This document shows positions 34,901-39,395 of a stretch of DNA of 59,507 nt, in pieces; position 1 is the stretch's first letter; each line of letters opens with the position of its first letter. Source of the DNA: Nanohaloarchaea archaeon B1-Br10_U2g21 (lineage in GTDB: Archaea > Nanohalarchaeota > Nanosalinia > Nanosalinales > Nanosalinaceae). Made by a program: the position numbers and the translations under genes. The DNA lies in NCBI GenBank assembly GCA_001563915.1, contig LKMP01000005.1:1-59507 (forward strand), written 5' to 3'. A model generated the notes under the pieces. The model did no database searches and was not told the DNA's origin. It worked only from the letters and a program-made list of their open reading frames with translations.

Positions 34901-37524
34901 GAAGAGACTACGATTTCGGAATAGAAACTGATGTGGAGCTAGAAGAATTAAACACGTTCCAGGCCCTAAACGCTGGAGATTCTCATAGGCAAGGTGTTGA
35001 ATTCTATGGTATTAGCTTGATTAATAACACTAGAGATCCTGTAAATGTTTCAGGAGGGTATATTGGAGAAACCGTTCCTTTCGAAAGACCTGAAGATACT
35101 ACAGGATACACATTCTCATCGCTATCCTATAATACTAGTTTTGAGTATGAGGAGTCTGAAGTTACATTAGACTATTCAGATACTGGAGAAAGTCCGGATG
35201 AGATACCGGAAGAGCAGCTCAACATATATTGGTGTGAGTCGAGCCAAATCTCTGAATGTTCAAGCACTGACTGGTTAGAACTTGATACAGAAGTAAATAC
35301 TACAACAAAGACTGCTGTTGCGGAGTCTCAGACATCATCCTCGTACATCCTTGAAAGAGAAGATGCTGGGGATGACGATGATGACGGAGCAGATGATGAC
35401 GATGGTCAAGAGGATGGGCCTGAAGATGGAGGAGAGGATGAAGATGATGATACAGGGGGAGCAGGACCATTGCCAGATGATGAAGATGATGATGACGGAG
35501 AAGCCGATGGTGATGAAGGAGTAATGGAGTTGCTTGAAGGTATGCTCGGTGAACAACTAGATGACTTCAGCGATGAAGAACTAGAGGAATTAACAGAAGA
35601 ACTAGAAGAGGAAGATATAGAAGGAATGTCTGATGAAGAATTAGAGGCTATTCTAGAAGGTATGATGGATGAGTTAGGAGAAGATGAAATAGAAGGAGAA
35701 GATCCATTTATGATTACTCCAAGAATATACCATCCGGTAATGCAACAGGGCGAAACTAGAACCTTTTTCATGGAGATAACAAATAACCAAGCAGAAGAAA
35801 TAGATGTGGACTTAGATGTTTCTGGAGATATAGAAGAAATATTATCGTTTACAGATGACTCTGTAGAAATACCTGCAGGAGAGTCAATGATCTCAGAAAT
35901 GACTGTAGCAGTTCCTGATGACGCAGAACCAGGCAGTTACAGCGGAGAACTGAACGCAGAATACGAAGACTTCAATAGAACTAGCTCTCACCAGATTTTA
36001 GTGACTAGAGAAGGAATGGATACGGTAGAATTAGATGTCCAAGCTCTTACATCAACAGTGCCTCCGGGCAATAACCTGACGGTTGGCCTGCAAATAGGAG
36101 ATGCAGAAATAACTACGCCATTTGATGCAGAGCTAGACTACTTAGTCAGGGAGAGTGAAACCGATCGTATAGTTTACAATCAATCAGAATCCAGGTTTGT
36201 AGATGAAGGAGAGACATTCCAGAGAGTAATGGATGTTCGGGATGAAGAAACAGGATCATATTATGTACAAGTCATGATGCAAGGATCTAATGTTACAGTA
36301 TCCGATTCAGATACATTTACAATAGATGAGCTATTCTGGACTCCGTTTAGAAGACAGGCAGCACTACTAATACTGCTAACATTATTAATCAGCATAGTAG
36401 GGTGGAAGGGATACGCATACTATTGGACTAGAAAGGAGGAGGGTGCTCGTTATGTGTTCCCTGTTGATTACAGTAGACTGCCTGTTGAAGATGACGAAAA
36501 TTACTGGGTCGGAAAGGTTGCTGAGACTCAAAAGAGCGCATTCGTTGATCCAAGCGATTTAACGACTCACGCAATAGTTTCAGGATCTACTGGTTCTGGT
36601 AAGTCTGTTACAGCGTCTGTGATTGTTGAAGAGGCGTTAGAAAAAGATGTGCCTGTTGTAGTATTCGATCCTACTGCACAATGGACAGGGTTTGTGAAAG
36701 AACTCCGAGATGACAACCTTCTCGAACACTACTCCCGATTTGATATGAATGAGGAGAATGATCCTCATCCATATCGTGGAATTATCCAAGAAATTAAGAC
36801 AGAAGACCCAGATTTAGACTTCGATGAGCTCAGAAGCCCTGGAGAAATCACTGTGTTCACATTGAATCAGTTGACGACTGAAGAATTCGATCAAGCAGTT
36901 AGAAAGATTATTGGCCAAATATTTGAGAAAGAATGGGAAGAAAGCCCTGACTTAGAATTATTAATTGTGTTCGACGAAGTCCACCGTCTACTTGAAGAGT
37001 ATGGTGGTCAGGGAGGATATCATGCATTAGAGAAAGGAGCAAGAGAGTTCCGTAAATGGGGTATCGGATTAATGATGTGTTCTCAGGTTACAGCAGACTT
37101 TAAACAGGCGGTATCAGGAAACATAATGACTGAAATCCAGATGCAAACTAAATCTATGGAAGATATAGAGCGTGTCGAAAAGAAATATGGGGATCAGTTC
37201 GCTAAAAGAATATCTTCATCTGACGTAGGAGTAGGAATGATTCAGAATTCAAACTATAATGATGGAGATCCATGGTTTGTTGATTTCCGTCCGACTTATC
37301 ACAATCCGCATAAAATACCGGATAAAGAGCTTGAAAAGTATCATAAGCTATCTAAAGAGCTATCGGAGCTTAAAGACAAGCTCGCTGAAAAAGAGGAGAG
37401 CGGCGAAGATGTCCGAGATAAGGACTTAGAGCTTCAATTAGCAGAAAATAAGTTGAAAGAAGGAAGATTCAAAATGGCTAAGATGTACATAGACAGCCTA
37501 AAAGACGAGATGAACATGTCATGA
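13966..37524 (+). CDS. Giant (7852 aa) acidic cell-surface protein: signal peptide, beta-propeller with nested CxxC domains, many Ig-like repeats, TM helix, C-terminal cytoplasmic HerA/VirB4/FtsK-like (DUF87-type) ATPase
   Basis: Uninterrupted 23.6-kb ORF; FG-GAP-like DATGDGTEEIVVG; about 17 DxAGN Ig-like repeats; TM at ~36358-36426; Walker A SGSTGSGKS (36580-36606), VVFDP, Walker B LIVFDEVH, REFRKWGIGLMMCSQ motif. Confidence 0.9.
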   Translation: MSELEKIKILPLLLAVLLAVALVGADASTYILDSTTDFQVTSEGEDRGEWEVYFVSDELGLVEFQSQDSNQLDFESVDYYDGSWNEIEPESTEPLSFEWNQSEAEYGRIVFELEEPGDYQGQLSFEDSERTVETTHRFEQESNILDLDSLTVPYSVCSFSDNFWICDPEEGEPGYEGELIELDPDEEKSIDVPSDAEVTDFSFLIESVDDQSLQNFTGSQAVFADLGDESAVVTKSADTVTVYSIEGEELWSHQSEYEIDSVDTGTIQHSEDTAEQPDDIVITTENSLEVLDYEGTEVFMRSGDEHGPVLIEELITDRVTDSRDTGDADRSQCVGCGEDALEFDMDFEVNDTQELHYIQLAMNYFEKEDDLNLVIGDSEYDIPVEAIDTSSIDTIKSDSDNIDQMLGLEDNLVLETPDEELNAETDYFKLPLAIAPEAQEELEINIGQEEYSVAPEDVTEELDAENYNTVDNLDALTHLDNSISYTPQEQVSEDSSTYVEVPLNRREGEETDQISLEIGGEQYTLSTSELEATNVERYSDDEGEATSGKRLYGDDELTFNLHYDMPEEFEAEDLYLKTAFSQVGDHAQDIDIDINEETYELDSEQITTSSSTEYSINDGAQNNSTCIGCDGGLRPEFDLTALDIEDSGENTEIGFKACREGEESEELELRGSGLDTRYEFTPEVVECSEGFEWISYTVDGSDIRDDYLALNCEDCDDDNYYNLAADDSTGGEYSRIFNQSESSTITDLGYDYMINASTDTALDFDLAKLPVDKEDIEQDAEVTYSCQDCTDEEHYRLMLDDSTSGNTFYSEEQVEAEGDAITRVWTNTSLDYENVRTRVDSEDLAEETEIDITCNTCDEGYNILSEDSEGETRDGEDLLSTEIGINIIEKPVVYEWVEIPTEGQEYLENDAEISCEGCEDEYYVGLDSGSDLESYRDSEDLPQNFGGSTFRLWTNSSLEHDFIRVPVDEEDIEEEDRGRIECDDCNQPSYNVMVDEDSTLDSWEIQGGEEEELSGGLMARLESFGTNLGNEIVVSRSPSTLEVYNSTGSIVWEETVENTIYDLVTGQVEESETGEEIIVATREDVRVYSSSSEELIRSYPETGEEWVRKVETIDATGDGTEEIVVGTDSGELIAIDEDNEEVWSKDLGSRVRGLTKGEVIRNEEKSLVAGLNDGTVDVISSDGQRILDYEGEEPVVSIDAEDVISREGDEVGVSREDTNVFNMYYSPEDVVFGVNSEQAFELEGVLRGSDQVEDSEITNAINEYLDACEDEVCSVPLAIEASEDGAAQISNLEVDFDYDVSEVIDSQDEVIEWAETEEIEAGEEIRFNALDIFYQTSPAIPLRVTQFRSDGITDHLAGGDFDGNVIFNDLTLSIDAETSTIDLRDSNKSFWLFGDGEERQSDRTWYRSDEAESPVEINSTEFETVDGFDQKNATVFRNTERTEDSFHNVTVGMSLDEEEIRGERFVEVEINGSWKDITPEVEGCEIYNEKEIDEEVFKSCMEDSNGSGTIDRVEVVQPEVGAQESETEYRVGGSSNLPPEITNLSVSPTEEVWGTEHNVVAEFENEEEDNIDAKLWVDSEEGWQKQDESIISGYENQVELEFNTEREMIGSRDLKIEYVDLDENEEPIRPPVNSTDIENPQIETVDVSERPISLDITDSGEQEIDRIGQENSVELAVLDDIDDVTVDSNDAFCFLWADNGATTLVDTTFTSDTGICQLDLENLDDLDVGERNWWIEVDGQDFYMDNQTETQNINLKGNMEFDLEFEDKKAFLENEHDLPEEAEYDISNVLDLTGEDREPESVDITFDGRNYPESPTEEDDYQGELRPEIYQDTPEPGEVEVSFILEKEAFNDAEQEINFTVKDSFESVLSTSEDAIDQSEAVNLTADFERSGEEVNPENVTFDTEADGFCQEIWDDGSTVTCEFAASSSLSSGNYNWSVDAEKDYNEHVQGQDSFDVVGDITAEIDIEDDEVYRNPDSEESNRLSYNIQDIEDEEGASITDADYYLEVQNEDGEFEELDSGNTGNSNSAQEEYTIDSEKEVGGTNFRVIVDTGDNEVTEVKEVDVFGTLEAETTETEDVYIPTTETLTDDDFSTTTDLQIQVEDELENTVADFETEFNRPEGSCSEENGNCEYSPSSNLQAGQYDWNATVEKEFYETAQTENEEVVVKDVLTLELPSGDEGVVESSFEDEVTQTFFLENSRGDRIDATGFEASLEDETAAFTDEQAQLEWGVACEAYNRGEQTLTAQLVEEDPNNLYSIFDDSQELELVVNNTLDVNIGSPLDVEDEDAEAYTQGDNINLETNVTGECGEETEEFDDDIVWSAEMIETEESDTIGSGAESTWSIQDEFSGFTEIQAEVDDDYLEENTDSVEIAIDDVITLNMTETQEEVIREFGEEEWNGSYEASVYTGEEEPANESEIDEDWENFEVTWYLQGEEIDSAETNEDGVVEFEVEYGEEYEPGEVELTVVLEPIDEEELSTAIIAPEQTEDIDVLDESRTTILEAPEEVLFQDEVDLEMEYEIASGEENKDTLDPSFEWRYERPEDSVSIGISSDKQPEWAISSSIYREGLINATTEDDLITSSSDNQTLIGNREANIETWDPQPNIPRDEVTEFSAEVDTPGLSDPSGYEVNFSVFNPDEEDDREVVDVAELDQDGVATINWDASEYDPGQYTTFLEIDDDEELFIEASEQNEEERQISIADDVEVTAYFKDNLEPVPGTRDEDNIHGTRFDNLPTNVVYRDPGPWQHPTEMYFGVNLTAPLANEPGEALVDEADAIFEIEHNETSETHEVQTCEIDAEDPETTSEDFFDFYGCETIWDASEMGSDLEVGAYTLNIRVDPPSEDWTVQEETGLDLEVRGQLQTEIVSHNTEDGNIEQYIMGENNTIDLEAEVTDLTTEETLDAEDLDDVRWRLMDSSSGSSARTITWDDHDSGSQNELETWIDLFDPGDDWRMRSSSQYIGIYVEKEYYEPTRNTHRRNHRNSGLQDRRNAFRQWEGEEARGEVTGAPAFRGYVNENVMDRINYRIPLELELAFPEEITDTDEDDRFEIRVDANRKGTDTSFNSFRGDYELTCLNCSENTDTHVQDAEDESGRSTGEWEFDFSEEEYNEYYEFEIVADSSRDGHITENDDSDDPAAIKQTVRVVRDLGAGEGDCEGDSNNTEPGENVEVCPNEYGFEDLPQSYWLNETATNLEDTIDDMEGPENPEDFDEEEHDFRWKQYQQFANESNEEYYEPDVRWYGEHSEYDELDAGGCNFNGETEGEDEFFESRESCTDWAITAEPPEFESIEVDTGYYRQDNQEPVQEVEAVVDYPTLDYFEFQYENPEGSRTALSPEGEDDSYPHTYIFDVYPEEFEGTFDIELIADTDESERTTETVTIYEDEEEITIDDIEVDDPVNEEEPDTQMDIELDLSGVTIDSDGVEKVGIDSDEDGNYDDAGVNLIFDESDESYTIEDVDFTAEDDTVDVKIFHKSGLESDSENAVFTFNEHDPEVDTFEILEEEDEPFKEGNVINFDIEISDEDEELDYAELTNPDGNQICEEELDDLENGQEVEEISCEYEIETTQTGDDLEFDLEVFDTAGRMGDETLQLEIDNDEPDIENIEIDPEDGIIAPEEEVDIQADISDQLDNIADTSVEDSEGSEVCSAGEFSNEGGDTYECTAIEGSDFEGSTTLEILANDEAGNENNETVEPEILVAANDPEITIKRPDAGALVSGEDVLIEANVTDEDGLLDEDEVEVELDDGTEAFTADMDGSGGSGGEFTYNLDTEELSDGEYSLTVYAEDLAGLDNSETLSEDIEIDNTPPEISIAAINDPITGDYTFEADIEDENDNLDEDALTYEIEDAEGSISQGDLEGSGTEFDTGDVDTTEFSEGDATITIEAEDLAGNDNDETSDPFNINNEPPEVNIIEPTGDSDEFFNEEVTVETNIEDEAGNEDEDSYSAQILDEGIDDNDPEINGDSVEFELDVSSLDTGEYTVEVEADDTENTGPTQETQNINVDTDFPIITSVSIPAENEVVKPETEIEITVQAEVEEDESSDIDLVEASFESGSSTVLSLESGDPDDGVWEGNLEAPDAESVHDIQIEATDLAGNTEEDSDTEVEVDDTPPSVADFGSDAEENEDGEAVTSSDDDVEFAVDATDSNDNLDEVRIEDSDEAVLDIFAENLEGESGGEYTITTSAEDLGLSGGENQLTAVGEDLAGNTGSDNYVVNVQDEDPEIEDFYLDDDVVQSDTNITATAEISSKWLDIVEFSHRGDTIEIDDEEIEQGDDGTQTFEIEIDSDGDHEEEVDVEVYAEDLAGNNNEDTISYEINDENPTIEEELEVEGSDEEISRSDNSLYFALEATDDFEVDRVELHGPSEDSIMDEDGDLYELDITPAQIGCNVDVDFEPCEINADVYDNAENMETSRTVTVNVDDEEPDVSDFTVDQDAVQTDTDVEFSANIDDGDPELETTEVRDSGDTICGLENGNEYSCIESFSEEGEYTLDAYTEDRAGNVNDDEAVELIVTDASPNIGNINDDANTNLDDVGVTRSDEEVRFEATVTDPDDLLVEEEVRIEGQQMESDENQPDVFYLEELPSNLGCVQTDHSECDLEITAEDEAGNQEQREHTIIVDDEPAEIEEVEMEEEVLTSGSTTEVTVRLEENEGEETVNYVEVEPSVSNNNNLTWNGEEWTGNIEIESTEASESSEDLEVRSVDFAQNTDEDTEQSYILDDEDPEVTNFASDAATNDEGEDIAQSDTDLTFDVTIADNVDIDKVEIGKPDDKTVVGEDLGEEETDVEDRSVTESITISSGDLGCTDTDFETCELKATVTDLAGNTGTDTYEVIIDDEPPALEEIELSDNIVQPNTEVEVFLDTDEESDRRIETIETQGDAEETDLEWDEEDGNWSATVELDDTEGQDRELEIFAEDWAGNTNDESKIYTVDDTPPTIEDLRTNSTNDIERSDAILEFSVEAENQFEELESVDVEGMEMERQTEETFAVDAAAEELGCEPVEDELDADTEEATCLINATAIDQAGNDESTGYELVIQNNPPEIVEDSYELDGVIEGDPHDSALPDEDLDLSIESDNPISDTEADLTAIEQETGNIEGGPVSLNDDPSGEDNYNKTFATQDLGITSGLIDFTVNITDEAGNTAEDIYTLDLDTVPPVIEDVYVNNTQPETTRDTVEIKANISHPFNVKEGMEGAYINVTAQNNESFKEQINLENIEDERESPDINSGNFSADFIPPDTDTYDVKVFAEDEFDEPEDELFEEVFTSIGEANLEVSMSPETIEFDNISVDNQDQYQLETVLENTGEASAYDILLQPSNIVTGIESNISDRDCGILEPGEECSVISEINVTADAGAGDRTISSNAFWENPDRTSGSAAEASSVVIDPNPVLDITSESHEEEIIRGETGSLEIELLNRGNMILQGIDASIDSTGGQILGSNDYEFDEVESIEIGESKTQEIQLTDNLEDKGEYPTTFLFETEDPSEECDEDCESTADSNITVFHQASIGVDQEDKTVDREEGKTVDINGEVIDDEDVPVENYSVQYIVDQEEPDIDEAKINETLETSSSGEISEQIDLREDGFAPGEYNVRLEISENSSRFYRTDQEVDEFSLEVRDELNVEQDLVSNSTLWYTDVDDPIIAEYTATDREGEPVEGAEVQFRSNSTQGVEDLEDVDDENINSTCPTNSEGVCDIEYRPDRSSQAFATIESIISKNEYYDFSPVDLQDDIEIEGDFSVVITTPEEEEGLLRGNEYDIQAVVLDSEGNPIEAESLESIDWRINNSDGETIKEPGEDTANETTWDIPSDKSTGEYTIDIRAEDDDNQPPATDEVSINVYEPVTIDNTSVETEVAERKNSEIEFDLTVQDSNDEALENYEICQLFVEGEERDNTTSGSEGECELLWETTQNDEVGPNTAIVEITEFRDDDKWYLPDPEGLTEEEFSIELEEDINLTVSQPSTDVYRVDPVPLQANTTDAFDRFLDTDIEWRLEESDQIIESEELESEFNASDLELGEELLNITAEKGEYNSAFQENDLTLFGRAQHEFEVSDEYFRGDKVDLTTQVKDANTTDTIEDAEVNFYENEEKLGTASTNSTGWANLTWDTEESDIGNNNITAELEDQQDIYYNQTTGNITNEVFLGGEIETEVTDISDKEIYRDEFAEPLQTVFEINTTDDLGDQLENADQEIIVDETTIGNCTTGESGTCSFEWDPSNETRIGELTGKVNTTAEDYFPAQSEEFNLTVQTAARPGLEIEEEIGYNFSESQGASINSTVLESFTGRPIADYDFELGWGQRDQPYEASMNHEDWDSEGEINSTEMGLEINETSLEKEIDLERIDLAEISLNNPENANWSLEIGNEEEIYEIDSNSTSEELELENNTVTELDFETDGKLVLEELVLSTLQLDERRELKYSELWGSETGRESDSGEFTNATVSDSNQLEEEIDDPDETPQGWYYEETDYIDTEIGPGIFGTQGLVVNATEMPGNESATIMRDYSEFSGTSVYEEFTTVEFWMNSELNGTLNMQGSACQENYSFEGLEWSPTQIDINSYHENCGEDVERIEVEFENTLEDELDTEITLDMFNRYRPSDTTEDKKKELKWLPPAAGNYTFKLEIEEEEYYNTTEQIEIVDIEVISTGGGQTPEDDEDEVPEQIGPIESFELEQNTINQTVGAETYGDLTPIGVANDDQQAINISSSTVEGEEFLEAPDDIEIQENGVENIEIGYTSQEPGNYSGTVAVFNSETSERDDIEVNLEVVPVEMELLDIGAEQGTENVTEGDKIYTTAEVAADEEPVTEDIDWNASVEEETCDNTNADSNSTTGIWNITCEAPSVEFNPIETEFELIAEYQELELRDNTELEYRDVTPPFVTSKDAENVEQTQETTIEIEAWDNVEVDRVEGHVEYIENETDMGEIQFQNTEDDWYRAEFDNTSYEGDYDAVVELEDVNGNEKTARVPFSVHPYVDLSGTSTEGTSFEFRRPGTESVLERYELEEEEFNVTAQRRDYDFGIETDVELEELNTFQALNAGDSHRQGVEFYGISLINNTRDPVNVSGGYIGETVPFERPEDTTGYTFSSLSYNTSFEYEESEVTLDYSDTGESPDEIPEEQLNIYWCESSQISECSSTDWLELDTEVNTTTKTAVAESQTSSSYILEREDAGDDDDDGADDDDGQEDGPEDGGEDEDDDTGGAGPLPDDEDDDDGEADGDEGVMELLEGMLGEQLDDFSDEELEELTEELEEEDIEGMSDEELEAILEGMMDELGEDEIEGEDPFMITPRIYHPVMQQGETRTFFMEITNNQAEEIDVDLDVSGDIEEILSFTDDSVEIPAGESMISEMTVAVPDDAEPGSYSGELNAEYEDFNRTSSHQILVTREGMDTVELDVQALTSTVPPGNNLTVGLQIGDAEITTPFDAELDYLVRESETDRIVYNQSESRFVDEGETFQRVMDVRDEETGSYYVQVMMQGSNVTVSDSDTFTIDELFWTPFRRQAALLILLTLLISIVGWKGYAYYWTRKEEGARYVFPVDYSRLPVEDDENYWVGKVAETQKSAFVDPSDLTTHAIVSGSTGSGKSVTASVIVEEALEKDVPVVVFDPTAQWTGFVKELRDDNLLEHYSRFDMNEENDPHPYRGIIQEIKTEDPDLDFDELRSPGEITVFTLNQLTTEEFDQAVRKIIGQIFEKEWEESPDLELLIVFDEVHRLLEEYGGQGGYHALEKGAREFRKWGIGLMMCSQVTADFKQAVSGNIMTEIQMQTKSMEDIERVEKKYGDQFAKRISSSDVGVGMIQNSNYNDGDPWFVDFRPTYHNPHKIPDKELEKYHKLSKELSELKDKLAEKEESGEDVRDKDLELQLAENKLKEGRFKMAKMYIDSLKDEMNMS
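36421..37524 (+). repeat. Duplicated ATPase-coding segment, copy 1 (copy 2 at 38292-39395)
   Basis: Both copies 1104 bp, 367 aa; 12 aa differences counted by eye; many synonymous differences. Confidence 0.92.

Positions 37525-39395: not shown

Follow-up and report, generated by a model that had tools for sequence, protein, structure and literature searches.

The stretch of DNA analysed here (the window: all 59,507 nucleotides (nt) of contig LKMP01000005.1 of the Nanohaloarchaea archaeon B1-Br10_U2g21) carries a SPEARE locus of Nanohaloarchaeota, in which the gene of a giant surface protein is directly followed by a short paralog of its 3′ end. Both proteins end in a nearly identical cytoplasmic ATPase motor. 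An old copying of this motor domain between the two genes, followed by ordinary strong selection, very probably explains the near-identity at this type-1 locus. As judged from sequence comparison, the cytoplasmic motor module evolves in concert and the ectodomain and transmembrane (TM) helix do not, which is new here.

Concerted evolution of the motor module

Counted without gaps from the C-terminus, the giant and short proteins differ at 12 of the last 367 residues, while upstream the differences are continuous, the similarity ending abruptly at the cytoplasmic end of the TM helix. BLASTP aligns the two proteins with 72% identity across 575 columns. The 1104 nt of the module are 85.0% identical, with 146 of the 166 differences at third codon positions and an even distribution along the module (2 to 15 per 60 nt). 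The Nei-Gojobori method, applied to the whole module, gives a proportion of synonymous differences (pS) of 0.66, a synonymous divergence (dS) of ~1.6, a non-synonymous divergence (dN) of 0.021 and a dN/dS ratio (omega) of 0.013. In contrast, the ectodomain and TM helix are 25-29% identical (25% for the ectodomain), with omega ~0.5 at saturated pS. A preliminary description of this DNA had reported that the short protein mirrors the last ~600 amino acids (aa) of the giant (two Ig-like domains, an FWT-x-x-R motif, TM helix and ATPase), with remotely similar ectodomains and about 12 differences in a 367-aa ATPase rich in synonymous changes, and had argued for strong purifying selection. The open reading frames (ORFs), motifs and structural models bear this out, dN/dS is far from 1 in the module, and both Walker A DNA strings quoted there are present in the window (Table 1).

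The 12 residue differences are divided equally between the variable C-terminal hairpin (residues 566-584) and the ATPase core. In the core the short copy mostly has the consensus residue; the giant carries D422G, where all others have D, and E524S, which amounts to three base changes. Among four-fold sites, 58 of 129 differ, as compared with 0.68 expected at saturation, hence the synonymous sites are not fully saturated. Identical codons are used at 197 of 338 conserved residues, where 134.1 are expected from shuffling within amino-acid classes, and none of 5000 shuffles reaches 197. Between G000 (the window's own genome, archaeal, 816 kb in 24 contigs, the window being contig C20) and another genus, codon identity is at the shuffled level (114 of 279 vs 104.7 expected, p 0.10). 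Third positions in G000 are T-rich, with a G+C content (GC3) of 0.36-0.41 in the module, while locus-bearing relatives have a GC3 of 0.49-0.66 and few T-ending codons; this difference in codon usage brings between-genus pS above 0.75.

Relatives were surveyed in 70 genomes of the same order and in one metagenome scan. An ATPase at least 68% identical to that of the window (type 1) was found in 12 of the 70 genomes. Six of these carry a short gene in tandem with a giant gene (frames of 8315-9433 aa, one of which runs into a contig end); in another (G055) the two copies are on separate contigs, and five are fragmentary metagenome-assembled genomes (MAGs) with contigs ending inside the module (L010, L023, L024, L025, L040, L041 and L042, from G049, G038, G042, G041 and G054). 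These breaks may be due to nearly identical converted tracts disrupting short-read assembly, and SPEARE loci may therefore be systematically broken or under-counted in MAGs. The metagenome scan yielded six loci, including three new tandem loci, M43, M44 and M45; M44 and M45 come from variant strains and represent the same locus. Every assembled type-1 giant has an adjoining short gene, in six genomes and three metagenome loci (in addition to G055, split across two contigs). The ATPase of the window's giant is 79-82% identical to those of the 8315-9433-aa giants. Within the nine other giant/short pairs compared, M44 and M45 both included, the two ATPases are 77-87% identical, which makes the window's pair (97%) the most alike. 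Four genomes of the same genus (68-97% complete) gave no match to the locus, and the best full-length match to the short protein among 5.8 billion proteins is 64% identical. Two metagenome contigs, L044 and L045, carry the same locus in variant strains; between them the giant ATPase DNA is identical, and the short ATPase DNA is 98.4% identical without amino-acid change.

Type-2 giants are shorter (frames up to ~4100 aa, less where cut by a contig end), have an ATPase 40-44% identical to that of the window and lack a short partner. Two single-contig genomes contain exactly one copy of this ATPase each, at the end of type-2 giants measuring 3336 and 3628 aa. Other DPANN commonly have stand-alone proteins of the same architecture, 600-700 aa long.

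Phylogenetic trees of 18 rows (M44 was omitted as a near-duplicate of M45) give different histories for the two halves of these proteins. In the ectodomain and TM tree, giants are split from shorts (support 94/92, with the core of 8+8 rows starred), and constraining the window's two copies to one clade fails the approximately unbiased (AU) test (p 8e-7). In the ATPase tree, copies are paired by genome in G000 (100/98), G055 (100/100), M45 (98/96) and G026 (100/99), all four starred, and a single clade of giants fails the AU test (p 7e-4). Grouping by type persists in the ATPases of one genus (G010, M43 and G061). Clustering of paralogs by genome, raised as a check in the preliminary description, thus holds in four genomes and fails in that genus.

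Tracts of identical DNA are found within pairs. The longest runs measure 491 nt in G026, 283 and 164 nt in M44/M45, 152 and 133 nt in G018, 107 nt in M43, 97 nt in G061, 92 nt in G022 and 80 nt in G010, while among the 12 copies compared the longest identical run between genomes is 45 nt. In each of the four tract-bearing pairs tested by codon-column permutation (G010, G018, G022 and G026), none of 2000 permutations reaches the observed run. No conversion tract was found in the window's pair, whose longest identical run of 35 nt is unexceptional (permutation p 0.31). Hence this pair was homogenised long ago, since no long identical tract is left, and conversion has apparently stopped in it. 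Only two identical runs of at least 30 nt occur in the pair, one of 35 nt (36421-36455 / 38292-38326) and one of 32 nt (37490-37521 / 39361-39392); they fall exactly on the first and last bases of the module, where k=31 contigs break. This placement may reflect chance or a constraint at the DNA or RNA level.

The copying itself has left its trace in the residues. Fourteen are common to both G000 copies and found in none of 12 other copies (5 with the same codon, 9 with different codons). Among positions at which the types tend to differ elsewhere, nine have the giant state in both G000 copies and six the short state; along the short protein, own-type states give way to shared ones between residues 257 and 259. 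On these sequence patterns and the excess of identical codons, the G000 module was homogenised in its own lineage. The older conversion suspected in the preliminary description is well supported by these private shared residues and by the starred ATPase clade, beside ectodomains of two old types.

In the history proposed here, the locus encodes a giant adhesin-like surface protein ending in a TM-anchored HerA/FtsK-superfamily ATPase, followed by the short gene and a coiled-coil gene. The 624-aa gene would go back to an old tandem duplication of the ~600 codons at the giant's 3′ end, placed most economically in the type-1 lineage. Ectodomains and TM helices have diverged as two ancient types, with gene conversion homogenising the cytoplasmic motors of the two copies again and again. 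In G000, the last homogenisation covered the module in full, beginning where the TM helix ends on the cytoplasmic side and reaching the stop codon, and its age is close to that of the separation of two congeners. Synonymous drift in each copy, with the protein held by the family's very strong purifying selection, then led to 97% protein identity at 85% DNA identity. The comparisons establish the concerted evolution, how old the homogenisation is and how strong the constraint.

Constraint on the motor and alternative explanations

The constraint on the motor was calibrated with the orthologs of two separate organisms, M43 and G010, whose ectodomains share 87% and 78% of residues. In the ATPase core, the G000 paralogs show 98.0% aa identity at pS 0.63 with omega 0.0115, the short proteins of M43 and G010 show 97.0% at pS 0.69 with omega 0.0114, and their giants 95.6% at pS 0.50 with omega 0.029. 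Hairpin identity is 91% for the G000 pair and 88-91% for orthologs; Fisher's test, applied to non-synonymous vs synonymous counts over the whole module, yields p 0.13. An apparent extra constraint on the G000 pair, which at first looked ~3-fold relative to the G010/G026/G061 orthologs, was dropped after comparison with the matched M43/G010 pair. By these sequence measures, the pair behaves like orthologs separated about as long as two congeners, and strong conservation of the motor appears to suffice for 97% identity.

Several points weigh against this reading. The calibration rests on one clean ortholog pair, M43 vs G010, and because other same-genus ortholog comparisons give higher omega (0.037-0.073), there is room for a modest extra constraint on the G000 pair. 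The G000 ratio of amino-acid differences to four-fold differences is moreover the lowest of 66 pairs. The dS values are rough, since pS is near saturation, and the conversion is undatable on the species tree, since no close relative of G000 carries the locus. Near nt 600-740 of the module, part of the identical runs falls where Met, Trp and two-fold codons are frequent; this lengthens runs in a way that codon-column permutation leaves uncorrected. Hexamer formation and ATPase activity are both taken over from the family.

The preliminary description had taken the near-identity as a sign that giant and short proteins must remain compatible at the interfaces of one hetero-hexamer, filled mostly by short subunits. 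This is not supported: the constraint is no stronger than between orthologs, hence near-identity is not evidence for a mixed ring, and because orthologs at equal synonymous divergence are equally alike, the observation does not require interface selection. The lower identity of the other pairs also argues against it, as do the type-2 giants, which are the sole ATPase copy in two single-contig genomes and have the coiled-coil gene directly behind them at two loci, and the common stand-alone versions in other DPANN. In addition, the type-specific TM motifs could sort giant and short proteins into separate rings, and coupling behind a 7852-codon ORF alone predicts no large excess of the short protein. 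As an explanation of the near-identity, a need for compatible interfaces is thus improbable. Co-assembly as such fares better. An overlap of the giant's stop codon and the short gene's start codon was kept in all nine loci read (8 ATGA and 1 TAATG, two of the nine being near-identical strain variants), so giant and short proteins are probably made together. Conversion tracts were fixed in at least seven other pairs, so the motor modules are interchangeable; the short gene stands beside every assembled type-1 giant, and solved HerA-family ATPases are hexameric according to the titles of the PDB matches. Paralogs of a homomer that are co-expressed and almost identical in their oligomerisation domain tend to mix unless kept apart. 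On this analysis, both copies would be active hexameric motors, made together through the translationally coupled overlap, and their co-assembly is plausible at clearly less than even chances; the motor's identity counts for little as evidence of it. A tentative model, to which we give a similar, minority share of belief, is that of mixed membrane hexamers in which an exchangeable motor, kept so by recurrent conversion, would bear either a 0.8-MDa arm or a two-domain stub, with the type-specific TM helices (GWKGY vs GGGxY) packing together. If this is true, the number of arms per ring would be set by the giant/short protein ratio. Mixed rings are a testable hypothesis in cultivated relatives, where many paralog-specific peptides exist.

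The remaining explanations concern the DNA rather than the ring. Synonymous changes could have been favoured after homogenisation to prevent deletion between 1.1-kb direct repeats, in which case dS would be inflated and not dN depressed. The scarcity of identical runs of at least 30 nt in the G000 pair and its extreme ratio of amino-acid to four-fold differences would fit such a recoding. However, the longest run matches codon-column shuffles, so the spacing is no more even than chance; orthologs, which are unable to recombine together, show the same dN and dS; and relatives tolerate identical tracts up to 491 nt, which makes selected recoding very unlikely. Replacement of one motor module by that of a related strain or species, and not by that of the neighbouring gene, has a slightly smaller probability still. 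A congeneric donor would give 85% DNA and 97% protein identity, as the comparison of M43 with G010 illustrates, but the 14 private residues are common to both copies, the window copies form a starred clade with a long stem (0.11), and no closer relative was found among the 5.8 billion proteins searched. Likewise, none of the six metagenome loci is closer to G000 than the genome set, M45, compared directly, being 78% identical in the ATPase. An assembly artefact or a recent duplicate has next to no probability, and the preliminary description had rightly discounted an assembly duplicate. Among the public sequencing runs listed, the locus was found in no RNA data set and in two DNA runs of one salt-lake sample, possibly the window's source, as Logan k=31 contigs, and these break at the shared 35- and 32-nt runs flanking the module, so the assignment of each copy to its gene rests on the original assembler. 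The copies nevertheless differ at 166 positions, each forms a separate 1087-nt Logan piece with no variant letters and with a depth like that of the single-copy flanks in both runs, and the same tandem architecture is present in six genomes and three metagenome contigs.

Organisation of the locus and predicted structure of the motor

Table 1. Features of the SPEARE locus, in window coordinates
Feature	Position	Strand	Basis and remarks
Giant SPEARE-type gene, 7852 aa	13966..37524	+	ORF; Pfam Big_3_3, Big_7, DUF87
Giant N-terminus MSELEKIKILPLLLAVLLAVALVGADA, signal-like hydrophobic stretch			Followed by long Ig-like-rich ectodomain, TM helix and C-terminal HerA-like ATPase
Giant-type membrane-proximal beta-sandwich (Ig-like) pair	35707..36324	+	AlphaFold2 (AF2) tail model, pLDDT 70-90 there; groups with giants in ectodomain tree
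Giant FWT motif and TM helix, type-specific motif LISIVGWKGYAYYW	36334..36420	+	Alignment; AF2 helix 246-281 of tail
Giant cytoplasmic motor module, 367 aa + stop: HerA-like ATPase core and C-terminal helical hairpin	36421..37524	+	Walker A 36580-36606
ATGA, giant TGA stop overlapping short-gene ATG	37521..37524	+	
Short paralog, 624 aa: signal peptide, two Ig-like domains, FWT, TM, ATPase, hairpin	37521..39395	+	ORF; AF2
Short-type beta-sandwich pair, aa 22-121 and 129-225	37584..38195	+	AF2; Foldseek; ectodomain tree
Short FWT motif and TM helix, type-specific motif IIIGGGIYTQRW	38205..38291	+	Homogenised tract starts immediately 3′
Short cytoplasmic motor module, aa 258-624 + stop	38292..39395	+	Walker A 38451-38477; hairpin aa 558-620 = 39192-39380
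Downstream coiled-coil gene, 531 aa	39421..41016	+	Homologs behind short gene in relatives, directly behind type-2 giants

Both proteins carry the FWT-x-x-R motif, as FWTPFR and FWTAPR. The motifs at the end of the TM helix differ by type, with GWKGYQYYW in giants vs IIGGGFYTQRWY in shorts. The short-type copy of G055 (L037, contig 22) has the giant-type TM-end motif WKGYQWY; because of this, the homogenised tract of G055 seems to extend into the TM helix.

The coiled-coil gene lies behind the short gene in most tandem loci and directly behind the giant in two of three type-2 loci read, and is therefore a conserved neighbour of the motor module. Its product (in the window and at L014, L018, L033-L038 and L043) gives only weak Rad50/SMC-like coiled-coil matches and is, on its sequence and position, a candidate partner of the motor's C-terminal hairpin. 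At a synonymous difference between the two copies (37481-37491 vs 39352-39362), the giant has TGTACATAGAC and the short copy TGTATATAGAC; by sequence alone, the latter creates a TATA-like string ~60 nt upstream of the coiled-coil start. Upstream of the giant, a divergent ORF of 1240 aa (10071-13793, - strand) has a GH127-like catalytic-domain match above the Pfam cut-off, as well as a glucuronyl C5-epimerase-like match, of which the matched stretch alone scores below passing; it may encode an enzyme acting on surface polysaccharides beside the adhesin locus. The window also contains a TFIIB gene (44150-45112), and all homologs of the short protein are named in their sources as Nanohaloarchaea.

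The AF2 model of the short protein has a mean predicted local distance difference test (pLDDT) of 80 and consists of two sandwiches (22-121 and 129-225), a TM helix (232-265), the ATPase (285-546) and the hairpin (558-620). The model of the giant's 640-aa tail, with a mean pLDDT of 61, shows the same order of parts, with sandwiches at 36-135 and 144-241 followed by the TM helix. Its ATPase part is poor (pLDDT <50 over long stretches), because the alignment holds only 7 sequences, and it was not used for the motor. A two-chain complex prediction of the giant and short tails (TM and ATPase, 401 aa each), run without controls, gave no answer for or against contact between them (score 0.00).

In Foldseek, the short ectodomain resembles proteins with tandem Ig-like domains (RbmA, WxLIP) and the motor resembles HerA, as the hexamer 4d2i (E 8.6e-10), and the nearest solved relatives in a PDB sequence search are YjgR and HerA. 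In Pfam, the short protein matches DUF87 (PF01935) with 47.3 bits (cut-off 23.2) and HerA_C (PF05872) with 28.3 bits (cut-off 22), while the giant tail matches DUF87 with 44.9 bits. By profile and structure, the motor is hence nearer to HerA than to VirB4. The Walker A and B residues and the conserved arginines (G312, T314, G315, G317, K318, S319, D442, E443, R465 and R468) do not vary among 36 homologs and are the same in both window copies. No protease or endonuclease family was detected in the giant by Pfam at E up to 0.001, where only ResIII matched over the P-loop region; similarly, PMC10266531, in the part covered, finds no such families in its own SPEARE proteins.

Relation to SPEARE proteins, HerA-like motors and other concerted gene pairs

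In the passages of the literature covered here, SPEARE proteins were defined in PMC6642349, which also describes a 655-aa 'version' in Candidatus (Ca.) Nanopetramus SG9. In PMC10266531, the cytoplasmic part was re-annotated as a VirB4/TraG-like ATPase with a coiled-coil tip, and 'another AAA+ ATPase' gene was reported immediately downstream of the giants of two cultivated species (SVXNc_0300/0299 and BNXNv_0298/0297). A short HerA-like ATPase gene behind the giant has thus already been published, as these parts of PMC10266531 and PMC6642349 attest. The window's locus fits the SPEARE locus of Hamm 2019 and Reva 2023 and agrees in its giant Ig-like-rich ectodomain, C-terminal TM helix, cytoplasmic ATPase, coiled-coil tip and second ATPase gene directly downstream, and its short protein is 61% and 59% identical over the full length to those of Ca. 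Nanohalococcus occultus (P0008) and Ca. Nanohalovita haloferacivicina (P0006), respectively. The passages covered in the SPEARE papers are silent on the short protein copying the giant's last two Ig-like domains, TM helix and ATPase, and on concerted motors. More widely, the main literature, supplements not being covered, yielded no mention of concerted evolution, of conversion or of the short protein repeating the end of the giant; in the text seen of PMC11803251 and PMC10443357, 'giant' and two locus tags matched reference lists only, as did 'gene conversion' in PMC10443357. In another species, the part of PMC6642349 covered reports TM and cytoplasmic SPEARE peptides only in gel fractions <315 kDa, which the authors attribute to processing or to the preparation of samples. 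In species that have a short paralog with almost the same motor, this paralog could be the source of such peptides.

For the attachment of nanohaloarchaea to their haloarchaeal hosts and material exchange with them, SPEARE proteins are the foremost candidates. Only the motor is kept exchangeable at the locus, which indicates that the motor and its coiled-coil partner are generic and the two ectodomain and TM types specialised.

The kinship with HerA and the FtsK-HerA group (HerA 4d2i, YjgR 11kk) is seen in the DUF87 and HerA_C scores above cut-offs, the PDB and Foldseek matches and the conserved Walker A and B motifs. Unlike HerA, the window's motor has a membrane anchor, a single TM helix on its N-terminal side that bears an Ig-like ectodomain; it shows no HAS-barrel match and is paired with a coiled-coil protein, not with the NurA nuclease; the sequence matches are also partial (for example, residues 38-116 of a 366-residue query against YjgR).

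The VirB4/TraG/VirD4 ATPases of type IV secretion systems (T4SS) and the archaeal Ced DNA-import ATPases are likewise membrane-associated P-loop translocases of the same superfamily. PF03135 (VirB4 N-terminal), which the covered part of PMC10266531 reports for the short protein, gave no match in P0001, P0008 or P0006 at E up to 5. The likeness to T4SS proteins is marginal and restricted to the Walker A region (T4SS-DNA_transf 27.0 bits, cut-off 20.1; TrwB_AAD_bind 21.1 bits, cut-off 20.5). The best NCBIfam match is CedD, with 42.6 bits against a curated cut-off of 600, and matches to VirB4/TraC reach 22-25 bits against cut-offs of 325-590. Membership in the VirB4/T4SS ATPases is thus not supported by these profile searches, which covered the ATPase proteins and not other T4SS or Ced parts, given the lack of PF03135 and NCBIfam scores far below the cut-offs.

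The tufA and tufB genes of enterobacteria are a case of concerted evolution of duplicated genes by gene conversion. As in that pair, SPEARE paralogs group by genome and tracts of identical DNA interrupt diverged copies. Near-identity of paralogous domains is, by itself, no evidence for co-assembly. Known processes in a known kind of locus explain the feature in the window, and the concerted evolution restricted to one domain is a modest new point: in contrast to tufA and tufB, homogenisation at the SPEARE locus is limited to one domain of a multidomain gene, beside regions too diverged to recombine.

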